Below the pieces are notes generated by a model. It was given only the letters and a program-made list of their open reading frames with translations. It ran no database searches and was not told the origin of the DNA. Shown here piece after piece: positions 3,284 through 40,075 of a DNA stretch of 58,205 nt. The DNA is from Promethearchaeota archaeon (GTDB taxonomy: Archaea; Asgardarchaeota; Lokiarchaeia; Sigyniarchaeales; SOKP01). How positions within the stretch are numbered: position 1 is the stretch's first letter; every line of letters begins with the position of its first letter. The stretch is from assembly GCA_016926735.1 (NCBI GenBank), contig JAFGOA010000171.1, forward strand, positions 1 to 58,205, given 5' to 3'. Position numbers and translations under genes: made by a program.

Positions 3284-3296
3284 TTAATTTCAATAT

Positions 3297-3361
3297 ATAT
3301 GAATCTACCTAAAATTTTTGTTCTTTAGAGTGTAATAGATTCATATTCTCTTTTTTTTTTT
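3297..3361 (+). terminator. Putative terminator (11-bp inverted repeat plus T-tract)
   Basis: ATATGAATCTA (3297-3307) and TAGATTCATAT (3336-3346) followed by an 11-T run, downstream of the ABC operon. Confidence 0.45.
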
Positions 3362-3574
3362 GATATAAAATTAGATTTTATAGAATTTAATTATTATCTA
3401 TACTGTTTTTGTATTCCTTAAATAGAAAAGTTAATAATTAGAATATATTTTGGAATTTTATTATCAATTTTCAATAAAATATTTTAAATCTTAAATAATT
3501 TTATTTAAAACTATTCTGTAAAACAATTAATAAAAAATAAGATAAAAATTTATGATTATAATGTTCGAAATATC

Positions 3575-4639: not shown

Positions 4640-4877
4640 ATTTAATTTTGTGTTATAAATTTTAAGGTATATTTTTTTGACTAAAAAAAATTATATCAGG
4701 ATAAAAATAAGTAATAAACTTTGGAATTTTATTATTAAAATTCAAAAAAATTTTGTATAAATAATTTAAAGGTTATATGAAAATGATATCAACTAAGATT
4801 GTAAAAATCTCGTTGTTGCTATAAAAATTATACCTTAAAACTTATATAAAGATATTTAACTATTCTAAATAGCAAAA

Positions 4878-13340: not shown

Positions 13341-14243
13341 ATGATAGAACAATCTTTCAACAATGATGATGATATGAAGCATTTTATTTTAGATTCCTTG
13401 GATGAATTAATAGCACTACTAAGAATAGTGGATCATCCTCAAAGAATAAGAATATTAACATTATTAGTTACCGAATCAGCACAATTTAGCGAGCTGGAGC
13501 GATTAACAAAACTCAAAAAAAGTGCTTTAGGTAATCATCTTAGCATTTTGATAAGTAAAAATCTTATAAAAAAGGAACAAAGAGGATTATATAAAATAAG
13601 AAAGGAAGGGAGATTTATTTTAGAAGCTATTGCCAAGAGTTATCTTGAAATAAAAAAATTAGAAGAAGAAAGATTGCTCAAAACAAAAGCCTTGATAAAG
13701 AAATATACAAGAAATGTAGGTAAAAAAATGAATGTTAATAAAATTGAAAATTCTTCTCTCCAAAGAATTGAGGATATGAAAGTAGAAATTGTTATATTAA
13801 AACCAATGAGAGTAGTAAGTTTTCACGAAATAGGTGAAAATCCTGAATTTAAAGTTTTAGAAAAATTAATAAATTGGGCTAAACCAAAAGGATTGCTTAA
13901 AAATCGAGAATTAAATCCAATTTTTGGTTTTAATAATCCTAATCCATTAGAAGGAAAAAAAGAATATGGATATGAATTATGGCTTGTTATTGATGAAGAG
14001 ATGCAGGTATTCGACGATGTAATAATAAAAGAGGTTGAAGGAGGGAAATTTGCGGTTACAAGATGCGAAGTCAGAGGGAATCCAGAAATAATTCCTAAAA
14101 CTTGGGAAAATTTAGCGAAATGGGTGCAAAAAAGCAATTATCGTTATGGAGGACCCTATTGGTATGAAAAATATATTGTTCAAATTGAATCAATTATTGA
14201 AAATGTGAATTTCACATTAGAACTCTATTTCCCCATAGTTTAG
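13341..14243 (+). CDS. ArsR-type HTH plus GyrI-like effector-binding domain regulator
   Basis: N-terminal HPQRIRILTLL...LGNHLSIL; C-terminal FGFNNPNP...GYELW...GGKFAV...ELYFPI. Confidence 0.85.
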   Translation: MIEQSFNNDDDMKHFILDSLDELIALLRIVDHPQRIRILTLLVTESAQFSELERLTKLKKSALGNHLSILISKNLIKKEQRGLYKIRKEGRFILEAIAKSYLEIKKLEEERLLKTKALIKKYTRNVGKKMNVNKIENSSLQRIEDMKVEIVILKPMRVVSFHEIGENPEFKVLEKLINWAKPKGLLKNRELNPIFGFNNPNPLEGKKEYGYELWLVIDEEMQVFDDVIIKEVEGGKFAVTRCEVRGNPEIIPKTWENLAKWVQKSNYRYGGPYWYEKYIVQIESIIENVNFTLELYFPIV

Positions 14244-16212: not shown

Positions 16213-16508
16213 TTATTTACAAAAATAAATTATGTTTTTTTATAAATTTTCCAGAGAATATTAAAGTGACTGTAATCGTCTAGATGAGAATCAAAATTGG
16301 TTAGATTTATAAAAACACTTTTGATGATATTAATTGATTTTTAGATAATTATATTTTTATCTGAATTTATTCTTAAAATAGTTATATCATTAAAATCAGA
16401 GAAGATGAATATATATTATAATAAAAAAAAGAAAATAATCTCTAAGTGTACTTTAAAGATATTAATGAAATCTCATAAAATTGGTCATATCTATAAATTT
16501 TTAATAAT

Positions 16509-17342
16509 TTGAATTATTTAAAAGAATTAATGTCTCTTGATTTTTTTGAATTAGATAAAAAAGATAAATATAGATTCCGAATATTGTTATATTTTTTAGC
16601 ACTAATAATTATTTATCTAATCTTGTTTATTATAGCTCTTATACCTCTTTTAAAATATCCTGAATTAGAAATTGGGATAAATCAAACAAGAGATCTTTTA
16701 TATGAAATTGTAAATATATGTGGTATTTTCTTACTTTTTAAATTTCTGTGGCTATTTTTATGTTTTTTTTCTGTTGATAGTGATAAGATTATAAAACATA
16801 ATATACGGGATAAAGATGCAGTAAAATTTTTTAATGAAAATATAAAGATTTTAAAATTACAATATATAAACCTAAAAAAAATAATATTTCTTTTTTCCTA
16901 TAAAAAAAATCGTAATGAGTATCATAAAAAAAAAATTGAACAACTCAGAGAAATCCAAAATGACTTTTTAAGACTGATAAATGAAAATAATATGAAATAT
17001 AACTTGAAATTTGGAGATATTATATTTAAAGAGAACCCTATCACTGAAAATCAACAACGTATATTTAATTTAGTTATTGCAGCGAGAACAATTTATTACA
17101 ATAGAAAAGCATTTAGTCAAACAATATTAGTTATTGCAAGCCATATAATAGATCTAGGTTTTAGTTTTGTTTTATTCTCTGTCTCATTATCTCTAAATTC
17201 TATTATTCTATTTATTGTAGTTTCGGTTGTTAATATTATTGCTATATTTTGGTGGATGTTGATTATAAAACAAAATCTTAGACTCAAGGAACATGCATAT
17301 GTGATTATGGGTGGAATTATTGATCGAATGAAGGTATTATGA
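16509..17342 (+). CDS. Hypothetical membrane protein (about 4 TM)
   Basis: 277-aa ORF with two pairs of hydrophobic segments. Confidence 0.65.
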   Translation: MNYLKELMSLDFFELDKKDKYRFRILLYFLALIIIYLILFIIALIPLLKYPELEIGINQTRDLLYEIVNICGIFLLFKFLWLFLCFFSVDSDKIIKHNIRDKDAVKFFNENIKILKLQYINLKKIIFLFSYKKNRNEYHKKKIEQLREIQNDFLRLINENNMKYNLKFGDIIFKENPITENQQRIFNLVIAARTIYYNRKAFSQTILVIASHIIDLGFSFVLFSVSLSLNSIILFIVVSVVNIIAIFWWMLIIKQNLRLKEHAYVIMGGIIDRMKVL

Positions 17343-17463
17343 ATTCTTTAAAAAAAAGGTCAAATCAATTCTCAATATAATTTTTGTATAATTTATCAAT
17401 CGCTAAATTAATCTCTCTGCATTATGGGTAAATTAAATTTCCCTTTACCAATTGAGTTTTTAA

Positions 17464-18279
17464 TTAGATTCTTTTCATGATTAGATCATAAATTGCCTGA
17501 ATATTTTTCGCCATATTACTTGTATCAAATTCAACACCCAATCTTGAGCGTAGAATCGTTGGAATATCTTCTTTATCCAAAAAGACGGGAATTATAGGTT
17601 TTCCTATAGATTCTGCTGAGGTCCATTCACTTTCAACGGCTTTTGATTCAGATGCATTCCTTGAGCAGAATAAAAGAACCACATCACACTTACCTAAGTT
17701 ATCATTCATGTATTTCACAATATTATCTTTCATATCCTCTTGCCAATAAAGCACATCACCAATATCATCATAAGAGGCTAATTCATAGGCTATTCTCGAT
17801 ATTTTGTATAAAATAGCATCTTTAGTGGAATAACTAATGAAAATTAGAAGACCTTCTTCTTGTTCTTTCTTAATGAGTAGAGAATGCTTTATCTCTTCTA
17901 CTATCTTCACATCCAAAGAATTTCTTATCAATTTATGAGTTGGTTTTATCCCTGCTTTTGCTGTTGATGAAGCCCATGACAATTGATATTGATTATATAC
18001 TTTCAATTTTCCATCTTCTATCTCAAAATGAACCCAGAATTCATATTTGCGCTCAACATCTGGAATATTTTTTATTTCAAATTGGTATATATTATTATCT
18101 GATATCTTTACAAATTCAATTCTATAAATATTCTGAGGATTAAAATACCAAAATCTAATTTTTGAAATATTATTTATCACATCTTGAAGGAAACTTTTAA
18201 GGTCAGCCGGTACTTGGTCGATTGTTTCCAGTAATTGCTCATTAAATAATTTTGATTTAAATTTCAAAGGGTGATTCAC
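17464..18279 (-). CDS. TIR-domain protein (C-terminal TIR_2)
   Basis: IFISYSTKD...CDVVLLFCS...ESEW...KPIIPV, with the Glu at the TIR catalytic position. Confidence 0.85.
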   Translation of the reverse strand: MNHPLKFKSKLFNEQLLETIDQVPADLKSFLQDVINNISKIRFWYFNPQNIYRIEFVKISDNNIYQFEIKNIPDVERKYEFWVHFEIEDGKLKVYNQYQLSWASSTAKAGIKPTHKLIRNSLDVKIVEEIKHSLLIKKEQEEGLLIFISYSTKDAILYKISRIAYELASYDDIGDVLYWQEDMKDNIVKYMNDNLGKCDVVLLFCSRNASESKAVESEWTSAESIGKPIIPVFLDKEDIPTILRSRLGVEFDTSNMAKNIQAIYDLIMKRI

Positions 18280-18410
18280 CTTTTCTTTCTATATGTTAAA
18301 AAATATTTTTAAAAAATAATAACAAAAAGAGCAAATAAGTTTATTGGAAAAATCATAATTTTCTTATTGAATCCAAAATAATCTGGGAATTAAGGAATTA
18401 TATTTCTAGA

Positions 18411-18423
18411 AGTGAAACAGTTA
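18411..18423. repeat. Repeat site 1 (arm left of core)
   Basis: AGTGAAA-CAGTTA, intergenic. Confidence 0.55.
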
Positions 18424-18552
18424 AAATATTAACTTCCTAGTATCAATAATTTTTGCGTAGCAATTTTAAGAAAAATTAAAATATATTTAAAAGGATTTTA
18501 TTACTTTAAATTATTTTATCAATAATATAAATATATAACCACACAAAAAAGG

Positions 18553-19281
18553 ATGAAAATCAAAATAAAAAAAATCTTTCAAGTATTGTTTATTTATACC
18601 TTATTAATATATAATCTCTCAGGTTGCATTTCATCAGTATTATCAATTTCAACTGAACAAGATGAAATGAATGATGTAGTTTGTTGGGATCAATCAATTA
18701 ATAAAAAATCTTACTCAAGTGAATATGATTATTTAGATATAATTGAAATCTCAATAAATGGACAGATAATTAATATAACCTTTTTAGGAGATTTAGCTGA
18801 TTTTGGTGATAATTGTAGCCTTAGACTAAGTTTTTACGAATTCTTTGATCTTAATTCCTTTTTAAATTTAACCGATCCCTATCAATATCCATTTTATGAC
18901 CTTTATTTTGGTTATACAGCAGATATATTTGGAAGTTTAATGTATAGATTAAATGATTCAGAAACTATGTATTGGAATGGTACTGATTTTGAATCAGAAT
19001 ATCATTCAATTACATCTAATTTTACTATTACTCAATATTCAATAATATACGAAATTAGCATATTTGCTTTCAACCTATCAGATATTACAATATTTTATGC
19101 GCAATCTCATTACTATAATTCAACTCATTCAATGGCAGATTTTGCTCCTGAAATTTATAATTGGTGGATTTATGATAGATCATCAAGATTCACAATCCCA
19201 AGCTATGAATTATTTAGCTTGATAGGAGCAATATGTATTGTATCAATTGTGTTAATAAACAAAAACCGAAAAAACAAATGA
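18553..19281 (+). CDS. Secreted protein with Loki-CTERM-like anchor
   Basis: Signal peptide; C-terminal IPSYELF-TM-KNRKNK. Confidence 0.75.
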   Translation: MKIKIKKIFQVLFIYTLLIYNLSGCISSVLSISTEQDEMNDVVCWDQSINKKSYSSEYDYLDIIEISINGQIINITFLGDLADFGDNCSLRLSFYEFFDLNSFLNLTDPYQYPFYDLYFGYTADIFGSLMYRLNDSETMYWNGTDFESEYHSITSNFTITQYSIIYEISIFAFNLSDITIFYAQSHYYNSTHSMADFAPEIYNWWIYDRSSRFTIPSYELFSLIGAICIVSIVLINKNRKNK

Positions 19282-19333
19282 TTAAAATTATATTTTAAAA
19301 AGCTCTAAATTAAAATATTTTCTTTTTTAATTG

Positions 19334-19352
19334 AATCAACATGAAATAACTG
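19334..19352. repeat. Repeat site 2 (arm left of core)
   Basis: AATCAACATGAAA-TAACTG; its reverse complement differs from site 7 at one base. Confidence 0.85.
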
Positions 19353-19444
19353 AATTTTAATTTTTATATATTTAATTCATGCAAATAGTCATTGAGTTAA
19401 CAAAAGATCGTGAATTAGAGAGATATTAATTTTATTGAAATTAT

Positions 19445-20287
19445 TTATTCCTCTAAAACTTGACAAGAAGGACAAAAGTAAATAGCACCTCCAAGATATT
19501 GTTGTTTTTTTATTGAAGTAGTACAAACAGGACAAGGAGTGCCAACTGATTTACTATGCATAATTCTTGGATATCTACCATAATTATTAAATATATCCCT
19601 CTCGCAATCTCTTCCTCCTAGTTTTACCATTTTAGAAAGTTCATTTCGAGTTGTATCATACAGTAATTTAAGTTCCTCTTTTTTCAATGATTTTATCTCT
19701 CTTTTAGGATGAATTTTAGATAAAAAGAAAATATCCTGAATTACTCCATTTCCGATTCCTTTTAATCCTGGTTCTGAAATGAAAAATTTCTTTACACTAC
19801 ATTTCTTTTTATTGGATATTTTCTGTAATAATTCATTAAAAATATTGAATGTAAATTCTTCTGAAAGTGGATCAATTTTATTAAACTGAATATGAGGATG
19901 TTTATCAATTTTATTGGAGGCAATTAATCTTACTTCTCCCCATCCACTTATCGTTACTGTCATATAAGTTTGATCAGTGAATTCCAATAACAGTTGATGT
20001 TTTGGAGGAATAGTTTTATCATGTTTATGATAAAGAATTCTCTCTCCACCACATCCTAGACTTAAAAAATAGTCACGATCTAATTGAATAAGAATAATAT
20101 TTCCATTTGACTTGCTTTCTGTAATTTTTTTTCCTTTAAGGAGAGATGAGAATTCTTCATCTGAATATTCTCCAATAAAAGCAAATCTATGAGGATTTTG
20201 ACCTCTAATAGCAGATTTTATAGATTTTCCTATAAGTGTTTCATTAATCTGTTTAGATATTACAATTGCTTCAGGTAATTCTATCAT
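19445..20287 (-). CDS. Fpg/Nei-family DNA glycosylase/AP lyase-like protein
   Basis: N-terminal MIELPE, H2TH motif GIGN, C-terminal zinc finger CPVC...FCPSCQ. Confidence 0.9.
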   Translation of the reverse strand: MIELPEAIVISKQINETLIGKSIKSAIRGQNPHRFAFIGEYSDEEFSSLLKGKKITESKSNGNIILIQLDRDYFLSLGCGGERILYHKHDKTIPPKHQLLLEFTDQTYMTVTISGWGEVRLIASNKIDKHPHIQFNKIDPLSEEFTFNIFNELLQKISNKKKCSVKKFFISEPGLKGIGNGVIQDIFFLSKIHPKREIKSLKKEELKLLYDTTRNELSKMVKLGGRDCERDIFNNYGRYPRIMHSKSVGTPCPVCTTSIKKQQYLGGAIYFCPSCQVLEE

Positions 20288-20397
20288 TGATAAGTTATGT
20301 ATTATTATTCTTTAAAAAAATTAATGATCTTATAAATAGAAAAGAGTATAATGGAATATATGTATCCACGTAAAACAATTATTGGTATTTAAAAATA

Positions 20398-20787
20398 TCA
20401 TTCTTTTAACATAAATTCAATTCTTTTCAATTCATCCCTAAGTTCCTTTTTTCGCTTTTCTACCTCTTCCTTTCTTAGTTTTATCTCATTAATATTTGGT
20501 TTTTTAAGCGGTATTACACTACTAATATCCTTTATTAAATCTTCCTTTTTATATTCTGCCATTATTTCCTTACGAGATTTTCCTCCCTTAAACTGTGGAT
20601 CATTTTTATCTGGTAGTGTCAATTTATTAAATTTATCAATCTTTTGCCTTATCGAGGATCTTATAAACTCTGATTTGGTTTGAAAGTGTAATTTAGAATA
20701 TCTCTTAATCAGATTATTTTCTTTTTCTGTAACTAAAAATTTTATTTGAACATTTCTTTTATCCTTATCATACTTTTTTGCTATAAT
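20398..20787 (-). CDS. Ribbon-helix-helix (CopG/MobC-like) protein, extended upstream of the ORF-track start
   Basis: Frame is open for 55 more codons: RNVQIKFLVTEKENNLIKRYS...KSEFIRSSI; AGGTG RBS directly upstream; ATT/ATA start. Confidence 0.7.
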   Translation of the reverse strand: MIAKKYDKDKRNVQIKFLVTEKENNLIKRYSKLHFQTKSEFIRSSIRQKIDKFNKLTLPDKNDPQFKGGKSRKEIMAEYKKEDLIKDISSVIPLKKPNINEIKLRKEEVEKRKKELRDELKRIEFMLKE

Positions 20788-20807
20788 TTACACCTTTAAA
20801 AAATAAT

Positions 20808-20824
20808 TGTACATAAAATGTACA
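20808..20824. promoter_or_regulatory. Palindrome upstream of the RHH gene
   Basis: TGTACAT-AAA-ATGTACA. Confidence 0.5.
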
Positions 20825-20930
20825 TATTTATAACTTTTAAAAACTAAAAATATTTATTTATAGAAAATATGAATTTTTAAATAAGCATCTAAGAGGAATG
20901 CTTAAATATAATTAAAAATATGAGAATTAA

Positions 20931-22385
20931 ATGTTTCCAGAAAATGGATATAATATAAAAACAGAGGAAAAAGGAATAAATGATTTGGTATCTGATGTTA
21001 ATGATAAAAAGCTTTCTGATAAATCTTCTGTTGGAAAACGTTTTTTCCAAATAGATTTTATAAAAACAATATGTATTATAATTGTAATTGCAGGTCATAC
21101 ACTTGATCGTTATTTTCCTCTTGAATCTTTATGGCAGATTATCCAGCCAATACCATTATTTTTATTAATTATGGGATTTAATTATGGAAATTCATTTAAG
21201 AAAAGAAACTATCATAAAATTAGCGAAATATATTCTTTTCAATATTTCAAAAGAGCATTTTGGAGATTAATTTTTCCATTACTCTTAATTAATTTAATAT
21301 GTTTTATAATTGATTTAATCTGCGTATTCTTTACAGGATGGCATGTAAATGGATGGAGTAGTACCCAAGTATCTACCTGGAGGAATGTGAGTTGGGGAGA
21401 TACAAATATAGATTATACACCAATGAATCTTTTCTATTTTCTTATTGGGGCGCCATATTTTCCTGGTCCTGGTGAATTCTATGTTGTTATAGCAATTCAA
21501 TTCATTCTGATCTTTCCCTTGATATATAAACTTTTTGATAAGAATCCTATTTTAGGTTTATTTGCTTGTTATACAATTGATTTAGGTTTCCAATTAATAG
21601 CAGGTAATGTGCCTTTAGTAAGTAATTTTTTTGACGATTATTCATTTCTATTCTGTGGAAATATCTTAAGATATATGTCCATAATAGGTTTAGGAATCTG
21701 GTTTGTTAATAACCATAATTTGTTTTCAAAAAAAAATATCTTCATAATAATATTAGCTATCCCTGCTTTATTTTTATTGATGATTGTTTATTGGGGGGAT
21801 ATTATACTTCCAGAATCATTTATTAATAGTGAATTTTTTAATTCTATTTTTACGTCACCTCCTATTGTTACTTTTGGTTATGATCTAAAAATATTTAGAA
21901 CATATCCATGGTGGGGAAAAGCAAATTTATTTACATATTTCTTCCCAGCATTCATCTTTCTATTACTTATGAAAGTCTTACCTTCTGAGTTAAATAAGGA
22001 TAAACCAAGATCACAATCCATTACACGATTCTTTGAAAAATATAGCAAACTTACATATCATATTCTTTTAGTACAAATTGTTTATTTTTTCATAAATATT
22101 CCAATTATGAATGATATAAGTATTTCGATAAATCAGAATATGTATCAAGCATTTATTCAACCTATAACAGAACCTTATGGAATAATAACATCTTGGCAAC
22201 TTACTAATAATCCAGACTTATTAAGTTTTAATGCCTCTATATGTGTATCATTAATAAAACTATTTCTAATATTTATCAATTGTTCGGCTACATTTTCTCT
22301 AGCTATAATTTTCTATAATATTGATACAGGACTTCAAAGAAATCTCAAGAAGATAAAAAGGAAAAAATATAAAAACTTTACATAG
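20931..22385 (+). CDS. Acyltransferase family 3 (OafA-like) membrane protein
   Basis: RFFQIDFIK...VIAGH, PLFLLIMGF, RAFWRLIFP; many TM segments. Confidence 0.85.
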   Translation: MFPENGYNIKTEEKGINDLVSDVNDKKLSDKSSVGKRFFQIDFIKTICIIIVIAGHTLDRYFPLESLWQIIQPIPLFLLIMGFNYGNSFKKRNYHKISEIYSFQYFKRAFWRLIFPLLLINLICFIIDLICVFFTGWHVNGWSSTQVSTWRNVSWGDTNIDYTPMNLFYFLIGAPYFPGPGEFYVVIAIQFILIFPLIYKLFDKNPILGLFACYTIDLGFQLIAGNVPLVSNFFDDYSFLFCGNILRYMSIIGLGIWFVNNHNLFSKKNIFIIILAIPALFLLMIVYWGDIILPESFINSEFFNSIFTSPPIVTFGYDLKIFRTYPWWGKANLFTYFFPAFIFLLLMKVLPSELNKDKPRSQSITRFFEKYSKLTYHILLVQIVYFFINIPIMNDISISINQNMYQAFIQPITEPYGIITSWQLTNNPDLLSFNASICVSLIKLFLIFINCSATFSLAIIFYNIDTGLQRNLKKIKRKKYKNFT

Positions 22386-22453
22386 CTAGCTAATAGACAA
22401 AAATCAAAAGAATAAAAAATTATATAAATATCAAGAAATAGAGATGAATATGT

Positions 22454-22735
22454 ATGAAAGTTGGGTATAATAATATTAAAGGAATTTTAAAAATTAAAAT
22501 ATCAAAGGAGGGATATGGAGATGAAAAATGGGATTGTGTAAATATATATGGAGATCCAAAGGGATTAAAATCATTTGCTTCTGTATTAATTCAATTAGCA
22601 AAACTTAATCAAGATAAATGTGTTGGATTACCTATTGGAAATTCTGAACATATACATCTTTACCCAGAAATAGATCTCACATCAGATTCTAATTCATCAA
22701 TTTTGGGTAGACTTGATAGAAAAAAAGGTAGTTAA
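22454..22735 (+). CDS. Small protein resembling Imm32-type immunity proteins
   Basis: IYGDPKGLKSFA...EHIHL pattern; family assigned from recall. Confidence 0.5.
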   Translation: MKVGYNNIKGILKIKISKEGYGDEKWDCVNIYGDPKGLKSFASVLIQLAKLNQDKCVGLPIGNSEHIHLYPEIDLTSDSNSSILGRLDRKKGS

Positions 22736-22787
22736 TTAGATAAATAAAAAAAACATCTGGAAAACTTATTATTTTACATTCTAAGAT

Positions 22788-22818
22788 AATCATCGTGAAA
22801 TAACTGTTTCACGGTATT
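22788..22818. repeat. Repeat site 3: complete palindromic site (arm-core-arm)
   Basis: AATCAT-CGTGAAA-TAACTG-TTTCACG-GTATT: perfect 7-bp inverted arms around a 6-bp asymmetric spacer. Confidence 0.9.
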
Positions 22819-22905
22819 ATATATTATCTATATATTTCAAATTAACCAAAGATTTAAATGAATAGTAATGTATTAATTTTATTGTGATTAATACATTTAT
22901 TAATA

Positions 22906-23223
22906 ATGGTACTTAAAATGGCTAAAACAATAACAACACGTTTACCTGATGAAATGGTTGAGGACGTTGAAAAAATAGCAGAAATTGAGAAAATTGATAA
23001 ATCTAGTGTGATTAGAAGACTTTTAAATAAAGCCATTCCAAAATGGAAATTAGATTATGCTTCAAAATTGTACCAAGATAAGAAAATTTCTTTGGGAAAA
23101 GCAGCAGAACTTTGCTCTTTATCGATATGGGATATTTTAGAATATTTCTCAAAAAAGAAGATTCCACTTAATTATGATTTGGAAGACTTTAATGATGATT
23201 TAAAAATTGTGGATGAGTTATGA
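22906..23223 (+). CDS. UPF0175-family antitoxin with N-terminal RHH
   Basis: TITTRLPDEM...KSSVIRRLL, then ISLGKAAEL. Confidence 0.85.
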   Translation: MVLKMAKTITTRLPDEMVEDVEKIAEIEKIDKSSVIRRLLNKAIPKWKLDYASKLYQDKKISLGKAAELCSLSIWDILEYFSKKKIPLNYDLEDFNDDLKIVDEL

Positions 23224-23723
23224 ATGATTATACTATTATATCAGATACAACACCCGTATTAGCATTTATTAAAAAGAATGAAATAGATATCTTAAAAAAA
23301 CTATTTAACAGGATATTTATCCCAAAAGCAGTTTATGATGAAATATTAAATACACCAAAAGATCTAGGAAATGAAGCGAGAATTCTACAGGATGAACTGA
23401 AAAAAAAATGGATTATAATAATTGAAATCAAATCATTAAAATATTCCGACTTAGGGTTAGGAAAGGGTGAAAATGAAGCTATTAATTTATGTATGGAATA
23501 CGAAAAGCCTTTATTACTAATTGATGAAAAAAAAGGACGAAATATTGCAAAATCTTTAAATATAAAATTATTAGGAACTCTTGGAATTTTAAATTTAATA
23601 AAGAAAAAAGATTTAAAAAATACTGATGAACTTACTAAAAACATCAATCTACTTGTTAAAAAAGGATTTTATCTTTCTAGTGAGGTAATTCTAAGTTTTA
23701 TAGATAATTTAAAAAATAAATAG
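23220..23723 (+). CDS. DUF3368 PIN-domain toxin (VapC-like)
   Basis: ISDTTP, IPKAVYDE, LGKGENEAI, LLIDEKKGR, GTLGIL; 4-bp overlap with the antitoxin gene. Confidence 0.9.
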   Translation: MNDYTIISDTTPVLAFIKKNEIDILKKLFNRIFIPKAVYDEILNTPKDLGNEARILQDELKKKWIIIIEIKSLKYSDLGLGKGENEAINLCMEYEKPLLLIDEKKGRNIAKSLNIKLLGTLGILNLIKKKDLKNTDELTKNINLLVKKGFYLSSEVILSFIDNLKNK

Positions 23724-23735
23724 AATAATGTTTCT

Positions 23736-23754
23736 CAGTTATTTCACGTGGATC
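23736..23754. repeat. Repeat site 4 (arm right of core)
   Basis: CAGTTA-TTTCACG-TGGATC, 12 bp after the toxin stop codon. Confidence 0.85.
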
Positions 23755-23815
23755 TATATATTCTGAGAAATCTTCTCTATATTGAAGTTTTATTTTTTTA
23801 ATTTAAATTCTTAAA

Positions 23816-24409
23816 TTATTTCTTTTTCATTTTAATTTTTAAATATCTTTTATATAGCAATGTAAGAATTACAAGTGAAGAAAAAATGGTAAAAGTAATA
23901 AAGATGAATGGATCTTGAAAATCAGTCCCAATTAGTGCACCATGAATATAAGCGAATAATATAGCAATATAATTTAATGAATGTAAATATCTCCATATTT
24001 TTGAGATTTTTTTTCTTAAAATTACAGCAACTATAGCAAGATATATCAGAATTAAAGCAGGTCTTCCTGCTAATTTCCAAAAATCGATCCAAGGATAAAA
24101 GATAGGTATAAAGACCGTGATATCCAATTGTTCAATTGCAAACGCTATTGGATGAATAGTAACAAGGATTAATCCTAAAATTGAGTATATATGATGTATT
24201 TTTATAAATGTCTTTCCAAATATCTTATAGATCTTTGGAAGATATAATGTTAAAATTGTGGCAATGAATAAACATATGAAACCATATAAAGCAGCAAACC
24301 TAATTATACCATCAAAAATATTTTCAGATGGGAGTATCTTTATTATTAATAAAATTATCACTAAAATGTTACCTATAATTAATAATATTCTATTTCTTTT
24401 TGTAGACAT
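23816..24409 (-). CDS. Ferric reductase-like / MsrQ-like heme-binding membrane protein
   Basis: 6 TM with His ligands (KIHH, IHP, WRYLHSLNY, IHG). Confidence 0.8.
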   Translation of the reverse strand: MSTKRNRILLIIGNILVIILLIIKILPSENIFDGIIRFAALYGFICLFIATILTLYLPKIYKIFGKTFIKIHHIYSILGLILVTIHPIAFAIEQLDITVFIPIFYPWIDFWKLAGRPALILIYLAIVAVILRKKISKIWRYLHSLNYIAILFAYIHGALIGTDFQDPFIFITFTIFSSLVILTLLYKRYLKIKMKKK

Positions 24410-24537
24410 ATATTTAATTAGGTTATATGAGAATATAAATTTTCATTTATAGGAAATCTGTAATGTTATAAAGAAAATATCCCAATGTGGAGATATAAAG
24501 AAAATTTTTGGTATCATTATCTGATTCTTGAATACTT

Positions 24538-24556
24538 CAGTTATTTCACGATGATC
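24538..24556. repeat. Repeat site 5 (arm right of core)
   Basis: CAGTTA-TTTCACG-ATGATC. Confidence 0.85.
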
Positions 24557-24713
24557 ACCTTAAGTGCGGATATCTCATCTTATCACATGCTTTTTTAATT
24601 TCTATAATAATATCTATAATTGATTATAGAAGTATATTAAAGATTCTGCATAAAATTAATAAATTTAGACGATCTATTTATTATTTTTAAAACTAAGAGG
24701 TAATTGAAAAATA

Positions 24714-25589
24714 ATGAGAATAGGAAAAAAAGATAATAAAAAAATATTTAAGAAAATTACCTTATTAACTATTCTTATATTCGTTATCTTATCGCAAAAA
24801 ATATATTCTTCAAAAGGTAATGGGATGGTTGTCGAATATGATGGTTCTGCAGGATTCTGTCCTTTAGGAGATAACAATTTTACTTTAGCAAATGCCGATA
24901 TTTTATATGATATAGATACTCATGATTATCCTTATACCTTTGATCTAGAGATATATGCAAATTATACAGTTTACAATCCAGATGATGCCGTAAATGTAAC
25001 ATTTGCAGCACCATTTCCGCAATATTCCTCATATTATGAGAATATATCAATAATAGTGGGAAATCATACTATTCCTTATTGTATAGAAGATCCAGAAGCA
25101 TATAAAGATGATAATATAGATCTATATTATTTAACTTGGTGGGATACCTCTTTTTTAATTTTTAATATAAGTCTTCCTAAAAATGATTCAATAGAGGTAA
25201 AATATGAATTAATCTCGATTAATAATCCTTTTCATGGTAATATACAATCAATAACATATGGTCTATTTACAGCTCATTTTTGGAACGAAATTCTTCATGA
25301 AAGAATTGAATTTCATGTCAATGGTACTTATCCAAATAAATATAAAGAACAATTATATGGATATCCGGAAATTAATTGTACAATTGAAAATCATGAGAAT
25401 ACAAGAAGTTATATTTGGGAATGGTATAATAACAACCTTAGTCCAGATGTTATGGATGTTTTTATTTTCTATGAATTTTATTATATTCATCCTACATACA
25501 TTCTTATGTGGATTATAGGTGTATCTGGTGCTCTTATTTTCATATATTTGATTTATTATCTTTTAAAACCAAAAAAATACAAAAGATAA
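24714..25589 (+). CDS. Secreted membrane-anchored protein, paralog of 57005-57865
   Basis: Signal peptide, ANYTVYNP, APFP, WNEI..ERIEF, C-terminal TM plus basic tail. Confidence 0.75.
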   Translation: MRIGKKDNKKIFKKITLLTILIFVILSQKIYSSKGNGMVVEYDGSAGFCPLGDNNFTLANADILYDIDTHDYPYTFDLEIYANYTVYNPDDAVNVTFAAPFPQYSSYYENISIIVGNHTIPYCIEDPEAYKDDNIDLYYLTWWDTSFLIFNISLPKNDSIEVKYELISINNPFHGNIQSITYGLFTAHFWNEILHERIEFHVNGTYPNKYKEQLYGYPEINCTIENHENTRSYIWEWYNNNLSPDVMDVFIFYEFYYIHPTYILMWIIGVSGALIFIYLIYYLLKPKKYKR

Positions 25590-25629
25590 ATTAATTATAC
25601 ATAAGTATTTATAATTCATTTGGATATGT

Positions 25630-25642
25630 TAACTGTTTCATG
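25630..25642. repeat. Repeat site 6 (arm right of core)
   Basis: TAACTG-TTTCATG, 12 bp from the nucleotidyltransferase stop codon. Confidence 0.65.
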
Positions 25643-25654
25643 AAGACTTTTAAG

Positions 25655-26284
25655 TTACTTTGAATGGATTTTTTCAAAAAATTCATCTGGATCAGTTATA
25701 CCAGAGGTAAGTAGACTATATTCTTTTGATATATTTAATTCTTTACTTGATTCTTCTAAAATCTGTTGATTTAATTCTTCTTGAAATCTCATCCAACAAC
25801 CTAAAGCATCTGTAAAATCTTGCCATCCTCCATATACAAGTTTACTTAGAATAAAGTCTTCTTTTGAGGCAATCCAACACTCTATTCCAAATAATTTCTC
25901 TCTCACTCTTCTTTTTAAAGCTAAAGGGCCAATTCGTTTGTATTTTGAGGGATTATTTTTTTCTATAATATGATTATCAATTCTAGTTGTTTCAGTTTTG
26001 TCAAGATATTGGATTATCTTAGTTTCTTCAGCCAGTTTTTCTGTAGCATTCCAATCTTGTATTGGTAAAAAATTAAAATCTTTAATAATATTGATAAATT
26101 CTTTAATTGTTAGGCCTGAATTAAATATATCTACAACAATATCTATATCTCGAGTGATTCTAAAATCAGAATAAAGATTAACTAAAATTCCTCCTACAAA
26201 ATAATACTTAATTTTTTCTTGTTTCTCCAGAGACTCAATTAAATCAACAACTTGTAACAATGTATTTTTATATGTACTTTCCAA
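25655..26284 (-). CDS. Nucleotidyltransferase-fold protein (DUF6036/AbiEii-like), likely TA component
   Basis: VGG...R.TRDIDIVV motif, SKEDFILSKL. Confidence 0.8.
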   Translation of the reverse strand: MESTYKNTLLQVVDLIESLEKQEKIKYYFVGGILVNLYSDFRITRDIDIVVDIFNSGLTIKEFINIIKDFNFLPIQDWNATEKLAEETKIIQYLDKTETTRIDNHIIEKNNPSKYKRIGPLALKRRVREKLFGIECWIASKEDFILSKLVYGGWQDFTDALGCWMRFQEELNQQILEESSKELNISKEYSLLTSGITDPDEFFEKIHSK

Positions 26285-26518
26285 TTATTTCTTCCCTCTT
26301 ATTTTATCATGAAATTTATACATATTAATAATAAGTTGTTTTCTGGTTAAACTTGGATTTCTTTTTTTTTCTAATTGTATATAGTCATTTAGATTAATCT
26401 CATATAATTCGAGAAAGAGATTCTCAAGTTTTTCTAATTTAGTGTTTTTCATATATTGAATTCTACCTTTAAAATCTCTAGCATTTTTCCGATATATTTT
26501 ATCTTCTTTTAGAATCAT
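26285..26518 (-). CDS. Small partner protein of the nucleotidyltransferase
   Basis: 77-aa ORF abutting the downstream gene. Confidence 0.7.
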   Translation of the reverse strand: MILKEDKIYRKNARDFKGRIQYMKNTKLEKLENLFLELYEINLNDYIQLEKKRNPSLTRKQLIINMYKFHDKIRGKK

Positions 26519-26701
26519 GATAATAATAAATATATTTTATTAATTTGTAGAAATCTTATATCTAAGTAATAAATAAAGATTATATCTATTATATTTATTT
26601 ATAAAATTATAAAATATGATATGAATTTTAATTTAAAAATCTGGAAACTTTTTTTTAAAATTTTATAAATTTTATATATATTTCAATTTAAAAGTACTTC
26701 T

Positions 26702-26720
26702 CAGTTATTTCACGTTGATT
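26702..26720. repeat. Repeat site 7 (arm right of core)
   Basis: CAGTTA-TTTCACG-TTGATT. Confidence 0.85.
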
Positions 26721-26899
26721 TTCCATTAAAATTACTGTATTTTCCATGAAGAATAATTTTATTTTTAAAATTATTTTACTAAATTTAGATTAATTTAATT
26801 ATCTACAGATAATTCTTCCCAACTAAACATATACTTACAGATTAAAGCTTTTTTGAATTAAATCTTTTTTTACCAATAGATATTCTAAATATTGAACCA

Positions 26900-27256
26900 T
26901 TGAAATATATTGGTGGAATATTAGTAATAATTGGAGATCTCCTATTCCTCATAGCTTATATAAAGCTTAATTCTTTGAAAAATTCAGTAAATAAATTTGA
27001 CTCAGCTAAATTAATAACAACAGGAATATATGCAATCTCCAGAAATCCTATTTATCTTGCATTACACACAATAACAATAGGATTTACTTTAATAATTCCA
27101 ACATGGATAACATTCGTATGTATTGTAATCTTTATTATTAATTTTCATTTAAGAATTAAGTTAGAAGAAAAAGAATTAGAAGAAACATTTGGAAAGGATT
27201 ATATTGAATATAAGAAAAAAGTACTCAAATATATCGGTCGAAGAATTAAGAATTAA
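26900..27256 (+). pseudogene. ICMT/PEMT-family methyltransferase, probably 5'-truncated
   Basis: LITTGIYAISRNPIY...EEKEL...FG..Y; only 118 aa, and the upstream frame is closed by stops. Confidence 0.6.
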
Positions 27257-27441
27257 ATGAAATCTCTTCTATTTTTTACTATATTTAGAAACACTCTGTT
27301 TTTTTCTTTCAAAAAAAGAAGAAAAAACCTCTATAAATAATTTCTCAAAAAAAATTATTTTCATTATTTGGATTGGAATAATTCTGTTAAATTAACATAC
27401 TTGTTTTATATACAAAATGATAAATAGCTATTTTGAAACAA

Positions 27442-27939
27442 TTATAATTTTTCTTTGTATTTTCTAAAATTTGGGAATATTGCATTTAAATTTTTTTTAT
27501 AATGGACATATAATTCACCGAATTGATTCAAACAATACATTTCCTCCTTTCTAATTAGTATTCGAAATATTATATAATATATTATAGGGATAAAAAATAG
27601 AATATAACTATTAAATAAGAGTACAATTCCAGGAGTCATAAATAAGATAAAAGATGAATAAAGTGGATGTCTGATATATGCATATATCCCATGTGTAACA
27701 AGCCTTGATTCTGAATGAGCTTTATTTATTATTTTTAAAGTTTTAATATATATAATGAAACCAAGCATCAATAAAATAATTCCAATAATAATCGTGTAAA
27801 AGGGATTAATTAGTAATTGAAAGGTTGGAAAAAAATAAAAATGAATGATTGTAAATAAAACTATAAAGGGTAATAAATATAAAATCATTTTAGGGCTAAC
27901 ACCCCATTTTGACATTTTTTTTTTACTTTTTATTTTCAT
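27442..27939 (-). CDS. ICMT/PEMT-family membrane methyltransferase
   Basis: LVTHGIYAYIRHPLYS...EE...FGELY. Confidence 0.85.
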   Translation of the reverse strand: MKIKSKKKMSKWGVSPKMILYLLPFIVLFTIIHFYFFPTFQLLINPFYTIIIGIILLMLGFIIYIKTLKIINKAHSESRLVTHGIYAYIRHPLYSSFILFMTPGIVLLFNSYILFFIPIIYYIIFRILIRKEEMYCLNQFGELYVHYKKNLNAIFPNFRKYKEKL

Positions 27940-28038
27940 TTCTATTTCTTTTACAATTTTAATCTTTGAAAATTCTATTAATTATAATAAATATTTCTAT
28001 TATAATATCATATCTTAACGTTTAAATTGAAGAAGTAT

Positions 28039-28974
28039 TCAGAGCGAACATGAACTCTTTTGAATAATCTCTAACGCTGCAATAGTACCATCTGCTACAG
28101 CAGTTGTAATTTGATTAAACTTTTTAACACGTATATCTCCAATAGCATAAACATTTTTCAGATTAGTAATGCAATTTTCGTCAGTTGGAATATATCCTCG
28201 TTCATCAATATGTATTCCTGAATTTTTCAACCATTCACTATTGGGTTTCATTCCTACAAAAATAAATAATGCATCTCTCTTAATTTTAACAATCTCCTTG
28301 GTATCTAAGTTTTCTGCAGTTATAATCATTTTATTACCATCTCGTTCAAATTTTAGGGATTCATGGTTCCAGATCATAGCTACATTTTTATGACACATGA
28401 CTTGGTCAACGGTACATTTCTCTGCTCTAAGATTATGAAAACCATGATGAATAAATGTAATTGAATTAACATATTTTAGGAGAACTAAACTCTCATTCAT
28501 TGCTGTATCTCCTGCACCTATTACAGCTATGTCTTTTCCAGAATAAAAGTCTCCGTCACAAGCAGCGCAATAGTGAATTCCACAACCTTTAAATTCTTGC
28601 TCACCCGGCAAATTTAATCTGCGTGGACTGATTCCTGTAGCAATAATAATGTTTTCGGATTCAAATTTTTCATCATTATCAACTTCAATCCATTTCAAAT
28701 CATCCTTAAAATTATAATCAGTTATTTCTATTGCTAATTCGAATTTAGCACCAAATGACTTTGCTTGATTGAACATTCTCTTGGTAAGATCTAATCCGGA
28801 GATTGGTTCTGGAAATCCGGGATAATTTGCAACTAAATAAGTATTTTTAACTGTACCCCCCGCAGGAGCGGATTCATCAATTACTAAAACTGATAATGTA
28901 CCACGAGCCGCAAATATTGCGGCTGCAATGCCTGCAGGACCTGCACCTATAATGATTACATCGTATTTTATCAT
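28039..28974 (-). CDS. trxB: Thioredoxin reductase
   Basis: GAGPAG, CAACDG active site, GAGDTA, AIGD. Confidence 0.9.
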   Translation of the reverse strand: MIKYDVIIIGAGPAGIAAAIFAARGTLSVLVIDESAPAGGTVKNTYLVANYPGFPEPISGLDLTKRMFNQAKSFGAKFELAIEITDYNFKDDLKWIEVDNDEKFESENIIIATGISPRRLNLPGEQEFKGCGIHYCAACDGDFYSGKDIAVIGAGDTAMNESLVLLKYVNSITFIHHGFHNLRAEKCTVDQVMCHKNVAMIWNHESLKFERDGNKMIITAENLDTKEIVKIKRDALFIFVGMKPNSEWLKNSGIHIDERGYIPTDENCITNLKNVYAIGDIRVKKFNQITTAVADGTIAALEIIQKSSCSL

Positions 28975-37843: not shown

Positions 37844-40075
37844 TTATAATACTATTCCTCCATCAACAATATCCCAATTATAATTATCTTTAAGATATTG
37901 TCTTGCATCAGCAGCAGCTCCCAAGCTATATTTTGACCCACCAGCAACAAAACGTACGTCAAATTGTAGAGAGGGTAAACTTGCCCATCCTATTAATAAA
38001 CTATCATAATTTACCGTAGATAAAGTGACATATCTAAACATATTATCCATGTTTGAAACACTAGAAATATTCCAACTCCCAATATTTTGATCAAAAGAAG
38101 AAGCTTCTGAGAACATATAACTCATATCGGTAACATAAGAAACACTCCAATTCCCGATATCTTGGTTAAAAGAAGAAGCTTCTGAGAACATATAACTCAT
38201 ATCTGTAACACTAGAAACACTCCAATTCCCGATATCTTGGTTAAAAGAAGAAGCTCCTGAGAACATATGATTCATATCTGTAACATTAGAAACAGTCCAA
38301 TTCCCGATATCTTGGTTAAAATCCCAAGCTTCTGAGAACATATGATTCATATCTGTAACATTGGAAACAGTCCAATTCCCGATATCTTGGTTAAAGTCAT
38401 AAGCAGCAGTGAACATATAACTCATATCTAAAACATTGGAAATATTCCACTTATCGAGAGGTTGATTGAAATAATGAGCCTCTCTGAATAAACTAGCCAT
38501 ATTTGTAACACTAGATACAGTCCAATTTCCAATATCTTGGTCGAAGGAGGTTGCAAAGTAGAACATAGCTTCCATGCTTTCAACATTGGATACATTCCAG
38601 TTTCCGATAGATTGATTGAAGTAAAAAGTATCAGAAAACATATAACTCATATCTATAACATTGGAAACATTCCATTTATCAAGAGGTTGATTGAAATAAT
38701 AAGCCTGATGGAACATATGTCTCATATCTATAACATTGGAAACATTCCATTTATTGATATTTTGATTGAAGGATTGAGCCCTATAGAACATACCGTACAT
38801 AATCTCAACTCCTGAGACATTCCAATCACCAATAGGTTGGTTAAAGTCATAAGCACTAGCGAACATATTACTCATATCGATAACATGGGAAACAGTCCAA
38901 TTTTCGATATTTTGGTTGAAATCACTAGCACCGGCAAATAATCCACTCATATCTCTAACATTGGAAACATCCCATCCACCTATAGATTGATTAAAAGAAG
39001 TAGCTAAATAAAACATACTATTCATGTTTTCAACGCTGGAAACATCCCATTCTCCAATATTTTGGTTGAAATCAGAAGCTCTTTCGAACATATTACTCAT
39101 GTCTGTAACACTGAAAACAGTCCAATTTCCAATATCTTGGTTAAAAGAAAGAGCTAAATTGAACATATTATTCATATCTAAAACATTAGATACATTCCAA
39201 TTTCCTATATCCTCATTAAAGTTATCAGCAGAAAAGAACATATAACTCATATCTGTAACGTTAGAAACATCCCAACTATTCATATTTCCAGAATTACCAA
39301 GAAAATTACATCCTCTAAAGGCTTGATAGAGTGTAGTTGTCCCTGTTAGGTCTAAAGTATCTGTAGCAGTGATATTTAAATTATAACATCCATAGAAATA
39401 GCTACCAGAATTTCCTAATCTTAAATCACCCCATTGTTGAATTTTAAGTAATTTAATCCAATCACCTCCATCATTAAATCTCCATCCAATCAAAGTACCA
39501 TCGATTCTAATCGTGTATACTCCTATTGAAGTATATGTATGAGTTACTTCATCTTGATCCCAGTTTGTAATTGTATCAGCAGTTCCATCGCCCCAAATCA
39601 CTGTAAAATTATAGATTCCACTTGATTCCAATGGTAATTTAACCTGATGCTCATTAGTAGACTCTGTACTTGTCCTATATGTATCCCATATTGAAACAAA
39701 AGATGATCCAGACTCTATTGCATCAACGACGAATGAAACTGATGCTGTCCCAATATTTCCAGCTGAATCATTTGCCCATGCAGTTATAGTATTCAAACCT
39801 TCACTAAATGTAATGGAATGTGGGGACGTATAAGTTACATTCGAGCCATCATTCCATTTATACCAGATAGTATCGATTGCGATATTATCTAACGCTGAAA
39901 TCTCTAATAATTGACTAGCATCATAATAAGTGGTGCTTATAGGACTATTTATTTCTATTGTTGGATTTATTGTATCCTTCTTTTCAATAGGTAAAAGTAG
40001 TACTACACCAATAATAATAGAACTTATAGCAATGATTGATGTTATGAATATTGCTATAATTTTTTTATTAATCAT
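37844..40075 (-). CDS. BspA/DUF285-repeat surface protein with Ig and PKD domains
   Basis: N-terminal TM, DTINPTI Ig-like domain, WGDG PKD motif, about 17 repeats of 25 aa ([20 protein letters not shown]). Confidence 0.9.

Follow-up and report, generated by a model that had tools for sequence, protein, structure and literature searches.

Seven short intergenic sites on a contig of a Promethearchaeota archaeon are probably where a site-specific recombination system, working in trans, shuffles gene modules of 0.6–3.4 kb. The system is most likely of the tyrosine recombinase type. The window, meaning the whole stretch of DNA analysed, is the complete contig C222 (58,205 bp) of genome G000, a 3.88-Mb assembly of 238 contigs with 26% G+C. 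It was compared with three congeneric genomes (G001, G002, and G003) and, at the level of the order, with a set of 41 genomes. The original prediction for this window had read the sites as boundaries of mobile gene cassettes, and that recombination reading is partly supported.

Sites in the window

The seven sites are found where the original prediction placed them, and the sequence and the map of open reading frames (ORFs) show all of them to be intergenic. Each combines a 6-bp core, CAGTTA (c) or TAACTG (c'), with the arm TTTCACG (A), CGTGAAA (A'), or both. On the + strand the sites read A'c (s1), A'c' (s2), A'c'A (s3), cA (s4), cA (s5), c'A (s6), and cA (s7). As had been predicted, only site 3 has both arms. 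It is the sole full palindrome, CGTGAAA-TAACTG-TTTCACG (22794–22813), and forms a local hairpin in the DNA fold (z −1.38 for a 131-nt stretch). One arm is missing at the other six sites, and the core is the most conserved part. Sites 1 and 2 carry their arm on the left of the core, and sites 4 to 7 carry it on the right. The mirror symmetry proposed about site 3 therefore holds for the arms but not for the cores, whose polarity is mixed (CAGTTA at sites 1, 4, 5, and 7; TAACTG at sites 2, 3, and 6).

The degenerate 19-mer CAGTTATTTCAYGWKGATY, referred to as S19, matches the window exactly five times on one strand or the other, as predicted, against 0.00 expected. None of 100 shuffles contains any match. 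The matches are at sites 2, 3, 4, 5, and 7 (Table 1), and the S19 13-mer with up to one mismatch returns the identical five positions (0.18 expected). The other half-site, TAACTGTTTCAY, has three exact matches, at 18412–18423 (−), 22801–22812 (+), and 25630–25641 (+), against 0.01 expected; with one mismatch the enrichment is weak (4 vs 1.13 expected). No further convincing copy of the site is found in the window, in keeping with the prediction. An arm-like ATTCACGATC is present at 19407–19415 (−), inside the 3.4-kb stretch between sites 2 and 3. Convergent gene ends flank three of the seven sites, divergent starts flank another three, and the remaining site separates tandem genes.

Most array sites retain the core and one good arm, with a weak TTCT motif on the opposite side. 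The S19 consensus from 33 distinct copies in G000 and related assemblies is ttcT-CAGTTA-TTTCACGATgAT.

Breakpoints and mosaicism

When 20 kb of the window is used as the query against the three other genomes of the genus, the modules are found singly on different contigs at 79–97% identity. Between 17 and 27 kb, 7 of the 22 internal ends of homology are within 25 bp of a core (0.86 expected; binomial p 1.4e-5). For example, homology to the Imm32 piece stops at 22806, the toxin-antitoxin unit matches over 22798–23759, and the nucleotidyltransferase module matches over 25645–26722 (90% identity to G002:C230:2377–3453). The module with the ferric reductase-like gene has 79% identity to G001:C33, and the module with the 291-aa ORF is bounded in G002:C191 by the same two kinds of site. 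The right flank is 97% identical to G003:C311 from 26707, where the contig of the relative ends; this end was left out of the count. The check proposed for the sites, whether synteny breaks exactly at the cores, finds support in these ends but not in the leftmost indel, which is described below. The same applies to the sites as module boundaries: relatives differ at the sites, except that this indel is off the cores.

Cassettes also recur whole in new surroundings. The toxin-antitoxin unit of the window is found in three other contexts, on G002:C20 (82%), on G001:C82 (84%), and on metagenome contig L115 (96%), where its flanks are DNA that in G000 lies on C125 and C147. The Fic/Doc cassette of C147 is found on another metagenome contig (97% identity), where one of its two neighbours is different. 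The 3.4-kb stretch between sites 2 and 3, which the original prediction took as one module, is a mosaic of pieces that match different relatives.

A cleaner indel is on contig C147. G003:C55 is 97% and 94% identical to its two sides and is without the 2.4 kb between them, which hold two cassettes (a 313-aa ORF and a MazE/PIN pair). The switch point is inside a shared ATCATCGTGAAATAACTGAGAA, and the missing stretch lies exactly between two direct sites.

Two pairs of hybrid sites switch at the core itself. C161:624 and G001:C139:4858 share 96% identity as far as CAGTTA and have no relation beyond it; past the core, one continues with the S19 arm and the other with TTTTGCA/CCAT. C85:18821 and G001:C145:5056 show the reverse, with 96% identity from CAGTTA on and 31% before it.

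Inverted cores, TAACTG...CAGTTA, bound three toxin-antitoxin modules (two in the window and one on C147) and a gene-less 160-bp unit with five copies in G002:C34 and one in C147. Within the window, four of the six modules are between inverted cores.

A recombination model that accommodates these patterns would have a complete site made of two inverted arms (GATCGTGAAA / TTTCACGATC) around an asymmetric 6-bp core, which in this array is CAGTTA. Strand exchange would occur in or beside the core. Exchange between directly repeated cores would insert or delete a module, possibly by way of a circular intermediate; exchange between inverted cores would invert the segment; and a double exchange would swap modules. 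With the single XerA of the host as the enzyme, the modules would be archaeal counterparts of the Xer-dependent dif modules.

Arrays and site families in the genome

The array in the window is one of many in G000. The scan of the genome and its relatives that the original prediction called for gives, in a strict census of G000, 72 sites on 28 of the 238 contigs, compared with 0 in the reversed genome. Sites on the same contig are closely spaced (42 of 44 spacings below 4 kb; median 1.3 kb), and nine of the 72 are full GTGAAA-N6-8-TTTCAC palindromes. In an unbiased ranking of 7-mer palindromes with a 6-nt spacer, CGTGAAA is first (5 vs 0.00) and TGCAAAA is second (4 vs 0.11).

Three site families share the arm TTTCACGAT. 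This 9-mer has 69 copies, 44 of which are in the 17% of the genome that is non-coding. The first family, S19, is represented by 17 copies of its 13-mer. Contig C147 has eight of these copies and two degenerate ones, all in one orientation and 0.6–8 kb apart. Three sites of opposite polarity (GTGAAA-CAGTT[A/G], at 27415, 30615, and 38968) are located among these direct sites. The modules of C147 contain a GIY-YIG nuclease, a Fic/Doc pair, MazE/PIN, DUF433/DUF5615, a DMP19-like protein, and an IS1 insertion. The last is an IS1-family element (a helix-turn-helix ORF and a DDE_Tnp_IS1 ORF; L002, 7772–9085) inside a cassette, with copies at 82–89% identity on C213, on C93, and in G001.

The second family was traced from repeats of the window at 26702–26770. 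Its sites consist of a left arm, a core, and a right arm (CGTGAAA/TTTCAC or TGCAAAA/TTTTGCA), followed by TTTTCCATTAAAA-N8-TTTTTCCATGGAAAAAG, of which TTTTTCCATGGAAAAAG is itself palindromic. Site 7 of the window bears this extension (26719–26757). About 23 copies are present in G000, on C38, C85, C112, C154, C158, C161, C168, and other contigs. On C168 (3218–15510), a second-family full site is directly followed by an operon of an SNF2-type helicase, an N6-adenine methylase, and two further large ORFs, which has the look of a defence system travelling as one large module.

The third family, N6-TTTCACGATCTTTA-TTCATGA-N5-TCATGAA-GTGAAA, emerged from an unbiased palindrome count and forms a bulged hairpin (DNA fold z −2.68). 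Its 25 exact copies include 13 on C1 and others on C15, C24, C153, and C167; none is in the window, and the family forms cassette arrays. The C1 array is mirrored, with sites on the − strand at 1242–7072 and on the + strand at 16371–25266 around a centre of about 9 kb with GH5-PKD-dockerin and subtilase-dockerin genes. A 119-aa ORF on C1 (7111–7470, −), the N-terminal half-domain of a short-chain dehydrogenase, stops at a hairpin-type site as if cut by exchange there.

A full site and half-sites are also seen with a second core, CCCCCA, as would be expected if sites need a common core to act as partners.

Distribution

Enrichment of the S19 13-mer is confined to the four genomes of the genus, with 17, 8, 12, and 5 copies. 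In each of the 37 other relatives there are 0–3 copies, mostly of a CATG variant. The second-family pattern has 15, 30, 3, and 18 copies in the four genomes and is absent from all 37 others. Across 185,579 species, with one genome each, CCAT-type sites are multi-copy only in three records of archaeal metagenome-assembled genomes (MAGs), one of them from Promethearchaeota. In viral contigs there are four S19 matches, all inside unrelated sequence without the flanks of a site, and no matches to the other two patterns; viral carriers were rejected on these grounds.

The CGTGAAA-N6-TTTCACG palindrome is more widely distributed. It is present in 29 of the 41 genomes of the order, with up to 14 copies, and the control count is 0 in all 41. 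Its arms extend to GATCGTGAAA / TTTCACGATC across the order. The highest counts are in G016 (14), G019 (12), and G023 (10). A few of the spacers are found again in other genera, in unrelated contexts. For one pair of orthologous loci, the alignment begins at the palindrome on one side, and on the other side one genome has an extra 0.9-kb gene. One palindrome (L095) is about 30 bp past the apparent 3' end of a tRNA gene. In about 16 genomes compared by eye, the arm palindrome was seen 2.4 and 3.7 kb from xerA in G016 and G006, an observation that is given no weight here.

Candidate recombinases

As predicted, no recombinase is encoded in the window. Six-frame genome scans with PF00589, PF00239, and PF01797 give no match on this contig, and no recombinase or transposase is found among 46 window ORFs scanned with Pfam, which include 42 of the 58 ORFs of at least 100 aa.

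The XerA-like tyrosine recombinase that was suggested as a co-occurring enzyme is present. Each of the four genomes of the genus encodes a single full-length PF00589 protein, and two weak partial matches were also seen. The full-length protein scores 240 bits against the 220-bit cut-off of the NCBIfam XerA equivalog and fails the integron integrase model TIGR02249 (85.6 bits; cut-off 265). XerA is found in 38 of the 41 genomes of the order at 46–97% identity, with a single close copy in most. The order-wide conservation of the arms fits an enzyme that is itself conserved across the order.

The link between XerA and the sites is circumstantial, and XerA, although the leading candidate, is put forward only tentatively as their recombinase. 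The alternative, to which the remaining and greater weight goes, is an enzyme that is unrecognised or was not binned with the genome. A dif site is single-copy on its chromosome. The sites described here are multi-copy (72), unlike dif, and they are without the TAA(N6-8)TTA motif, which the accessible part of one report gives as the most conserved feature of archaeal dif sites (PMC11840125); the arms here end AAA-N6-TTT. Both differences weigh against XerA, as does the finding that genomes of family f2 with a similar XerA have 0 to 6 palindromes. No dif-like palindrome is located beside xerA in the four genomes of the genus, and a search of the genome for palindromes of the 11-6-11 type returned no enriched family.

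Serine recombinases were considered for this role and rejected. Of the three that the genome encodes, one is a Tn3 resolvase and the others look IS607-like, a label based on an N-terminal helix-turn-helix and a neighbouring large ORF. The resolvase belongs to a Tn3-family fragment on a short contig (C12, 1–4462) with a DDE_Tnp_Tn3 transposase of 889 aa that runs off the contig. The genome scan contains no Y1 transposase.

Evidence against recombination and alternative explanations

Several observations count against site-specific recombination at these sites. No recombination event, circle, or empty site was directly observed, and no recombinase is in or beside any array examined. The segment 18357–19426 is absent from G003:C290, and the ends of this indel are 62 and 75 bp off the cores of sites 1 and 2, flanked by an imperfect direct repeat of 13–15 bp. 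The G002:C230 homologue of the nucleotidyltransferase module is without a recognisable site at its left edge. All compared genomes are fragmented metagenome assemblies, and several contigs of relatives just end at a site, which is an assembly break and not a rearrangement. The order-wide palindromes are mostly single, between housekeeping genes, and nearly all have different spacers; they may have another primary role. The growth of the array by repeated insertion of circles at site 3, as originally proposed, does not fit: the polarity of the cores is mixed, and simple insertion there explains only two of the six half-sites (s2 and s6). Since sites 1, 4, 5, and 7 are opposite to site 3 in polarity, inversions or the replacement of modules by double exchange would be needed as well.

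It is unlikely, but less so than the other alternatives, that the TAACTG...CAGTTA units are non-autonomous, transposon-like elements with 6-bp inverted termini and an unrecognised transposase, the TTTCACG arm being part of the end or a preferred target. This would cover the two toxin-antitoxin units of the window, the one on C147, and the gene-less 160-bp unit, all of which have one end structure. A toxin-antitoxin unit of the window moves whole among four contexts, and simple circle insertion cannot yield inverted ends. However, the inverted termini are just 6 bp long and no target-site duplication is seen at the junctions inspected. Many sites are direct repeats and unpaired, and the S19 sites of C147 are all in one orientation. 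No Y1 transposase was found, the DDE and serine enzymes that were found belong to ordinary IS1, IS607-like, and Tn3 elements, and among the 292 ORFs within 8 kb of sites there is no gene family that recurs beside the arrays. An operator of a dimeric transcription factor or other DNA-binding protein in an accessory island, with no role in recombination, is improbable. The order-wide palindrome, with its conserved arms and variable spacers, would suit such an operator: it occurs 1–14 times per genome beside housekeeping genes and is sometimes conserved at orthologous loci. In the window, however, conservation is highest in the core, which would correspond to the spacer, and six of the seven sites are missing one arm. 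The three sites between convergent gene ends speak against a promoter or operator. It is at the core that homology with relatives switches, and identical copies of palindrome and spacer are found in unrelated contexts in different genomes.

There is very little probability that the arrays are clusters of attC sites lacking integron integrases (CALINs) on which an integrase encoded elsewhere acts. Unrelated cassettes, often toxin-antitoxin pairs, are split by a repeated site as in CALINs, and the third site family is a bulged hairpin. According to the accessible part of one survey, CALINs are enriched in Asgard archaea, where they occur in about 8% of genomes, with up to 107 attC sites in one MAG (PMC9668308). 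Nevertheless, no integron integrase is found, and the sole full-length tyrosine recombinase fails TIGR02249. Four S19 sites with their flanks fold no better than shuffles (z +1.00, +0.03, −0.40, and +0.71), the genes are in both orientations with room for their own promoters, and Rfam gives 0 matches at E ≤ 1 in the window at 17000–28500 and in two other arrays. The attC R' consensus is GTTRRRY, which the core context GTTATTT does not fit. The system described here may account for some arrays that were earlier labelled as archaeal integrons without integrases, and some of the present arrays may already have been counted as CALINs. Homologous recombination between short repeats, or chimeric metagenome assembly, is just as poor a candidate for the source of the mosaic. 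Every genome used is a MAG, the relatives have many short contigs that end at sites, and 6 of the 72 sites are within 300 bp of a contig end (3.7% expected). Against this, the repeats are only about 19–45 bp long, and the same junction logic is seen in four independent assemblies and in separate metagenome contigs. The hybrid sites switch exactly at the 6-bp core between otherwise unlike arms. The site families are also strongly over-represented and keep to intergenic DNA, with 44 of 69 TTTCACGAT copies in the 17% of the genome that is non-coding.

Comparison with known systems

The nearest described system is the dif modules of Acinetobacter plasmids, the pdif part of the original analogy to integrons and pdif modules. 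For the integron part, no IntI and no folded S19 site were found. As described in the accessible part of the source (PMC6449649), plasmid dif (pdif) modules are thought to move via the host XerC/XerD, by a mechanism that the source leaves unresolved. Their sites are 28 bp long, with one conserved arm, one weaker arm, a 6-bp centre, and palindromic inner arms; the modules are often toxin-antitoxin pairs or transporters, and many are flanked by inverted sites (PMC6449649). To the extent of that description, the likeness covers modules of about 0.8–3 kb with unrelated accessory genes and no recombinase, and sites with two arms around a 6-bp centre, one arm better conserved, and palindromic inner arms. 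Inverted cores flank four of six modules in the window, and the S19 sites of C147 are all direct. Inverted arms with a 6-bp spacer are also what the accessible parts of reviews describe for Xer/dif sites in general. The differences are an archaeal host with a single XerA in place of XerC/XerD, chromosomal-looking arrays of up to 13 sites, a central region whose sequence is what each family conserves, composite sites in three families that add repeats or a hairpin, and arms unlike those of the dif sites in the parts of the reports available. Archaeal dif differs in being single-copy, compared with 72 sites here, and in its TAA(N6-8)TTA motif (PMC11840125).

In integrons, attC is an imperfect palindrome of about 57–141 nt that folds single-stranded, and the cassettes are mostly promoterless and co-oriented. 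The present arrays differ in having no IntI, no attC-type fold at S19, mixed gene orientation, and conservation of primary sequence rather than structure. They resemble integrons and CALINs, as far as the accessible part of the survey describes these, in their small, mostly unique cassettes, often toxin-antitoxin pairs, and in the absence of the recombinase from most arrays (PMC9668308).

Elements without their own recombinase would integrate at a site of the host recombinase and accumulate in tandem, as with integrative mobile elements exploiting Xer (IMEX). IMEX such as the CTX phage integrate at the single chromosomal dif, and as a rule only one arm of the element's site is good. The present genome has dozens of sites, several of them full, and no link to a dif site was found. 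In the shufflon sites of R64 (Rci/sfx), a short core is joined to a right arm that is conserved and a left arm that is not, and recombination requires inverted sites. The one-armed sites and mixed polarity of the present arrays resemble these features. Shufflon segments of R64 are alternative 3' ends of one gene beside rci, whereas here whole unrelated genes are involved; neither an Rci-like gene nor a second full-length tyrosine recombinase was found in the G000 genome. Insertion sequences and miniature inverted-repeat transposable elements differ from the present units, which have only 6-bp inverted cores, no target-site duplication, and no cognate transposase found. Aloposons, which in the accessible part of their description have tRNA genes as integration sites and giant genes in tandem as their defining feature (PMC8813620), were considered and rejected as unrelated to these sites. 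A 2038-aa ORF beside the C147 array encodes a Peptidase_C25/CARDB/cohesin/dockerin protein.

A literature search found neither these site sequences nor archaeal modules of the Xer type described; the supplementary list of archaeal CALIN genomes was outside this search. A 2021 review of archaeal tyrosine recombinases makes no mention of "IMEX", "Asgard", or "hijack".

Possible extent and significance

It is conceivable, although we would not rely on it, that one genus of Promethearchaeota runs a large undescribed cassette-exchange system. Such a system would have about 70 sites per genome in three composite families, with one recombinase-binding arm, the core as a compatibility code, and an order-wide host protein, most simply XerA, as the enzyme. 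If so, it would be the first case in archaea of modules driven by Xer, and a main route by which these genomes trade genes for defence, toxin-antitoxin pairs, and transport. With XerA as the enzyme, modules that exploit Xer would extend from a few bacteria to archaea, and the palindromes of a whole order would gain a function. With another enzyme, an unrecognised recombinase awaits discovery.

Ideas on the origin of the eukaryotic gene set give a central place to the genes that Asgard archaea acquire and exchange among themselves. To our knowledge, the biology of mobile elements in Asgard archaea is barely known. The present system is defined by sequence, with short sites, sharp junctions, dozens of cassettes per genome, and differences between close relatives. 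The defined sites also provide a practical means to catalogue the pool of accessory genes in these uncultured organisms.

Gene content of the array and its surroundings

The Pfam matches bear out the prediction that the modules hold unrelated accessory genes (Table 1). Across arrays the content includes toxin-antitoxin pairs, defence genes, and transporters, in both orientations.

Table 1. Sites, modules, and genes of the array and its two flanks in the window.
Feature	Position	Strand	Description
Left flank, TIR-domain protein gene	17464–18279	−	271 aa; Pfam TIR_2 6.8e-13
Site 1, half-site	18412–18423	−	TAACTG+TTTCAC on the − strand; GTGAAA-CAGTTA on the + strand
Module 1	18424–19333	+	ORF 18553–19281, 242 aa, no Pfam family
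Site 2, S19 half-site	19334–19352	−	CAGTTATTTCATGTTGATT
Composite 3.4-kb stretch	19353–22787	.	Pieces match different contigs of relatives
Fpg/Nei glycosylase	19445–20287	−	Pfam; in the 3.4-kb stretch
Small ORF	20398–20622	−	In the 3.4-kb stretch
Acyl_transf_3 membrane protein	20931–22385	+	Pfam; in the 3.4-kb stretch
Imm32	22454–22735	+	Pfam; in the 3.4-kb stretch
Site 3, full site	22788–22813		ATCATCGTGAAA-TAACTG-TTTCACGG; 7-bp inverted arms, asymmetric 6-bp core; S19 match at 22788–22806 (−)
Toxin-antitoxin module	22801–23741	+	Left bound TAACTG-TTTCACGG, right bound TTTCT-CAGTTA
UPF0175 antitoxin	22906–23223	+	Pfam
DUF3368 PIN-like toxin	23220–23723	+	Pfam
Site 4, S19 half-site	23736–23754	+	
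Module	23742–24537	−	Ferric_reduct-like membrane protein gene 23816–24409; Pfam 4.1e-05, below curated cut-off
Site 5, S19 half-site	24538–24556	+	G002:C191 homology begins at 24537
Module	24544–25629	+	ORF 24714–25589, 291 aa, no Pfam family
Site 6, half-site	25630–25647	+	TAACTG+TTTCATGAAGAC; G002:C230 homology begins at 25645
Module	25636–26701	−	Nucleotidyltransferase 25655–26284 and 77-aa partner 26285–26518
Site 7, S19 half-site with CCAT extension	26702–26757	+	Extension TTTTCCATTAAAA-N8-ATTTTCCATGAAGAA; S19 match at 26702–26720 (+)
Right flank, PEMT/ICMT-family methyltransferase gene	26900–27256	+	Pfam

The nucleotidyltransferase is DUF6036/AbiEii-like, with both Pfam matches under their curated cut-offs. 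The TIR gene of the left flank is 94% identical to a gene on G003:C290, where it directly abuts the Fpg gene. No tRNA genes are present in the window; together with the Rfam result, this led to the rejection of known RNAs or tRNAs as targets.

A 719-aa protein with a SIR2_2 domain is encoded at 45033–47192 (−). Both SIR2_2 and TIR domains are frequent in anti-virus defence systems, which makes the contig look rich in defence genes outside the array as well. About 4 kb to the left of the array (13341–14243, +), an ArsR-type helix-turn-helix is fused to a GyrI-like/Cass2 domain; the Pfam name of Cass2, "integron-associated effector binding protein", is probably a coincidence of naming. A 743-aa protein at 37844–40075 (−) is made up of DUF285 repeats (Pfam E 2e-202), and its gene shows a 75-base periodicity in self-like DNA matches to G003:C700.

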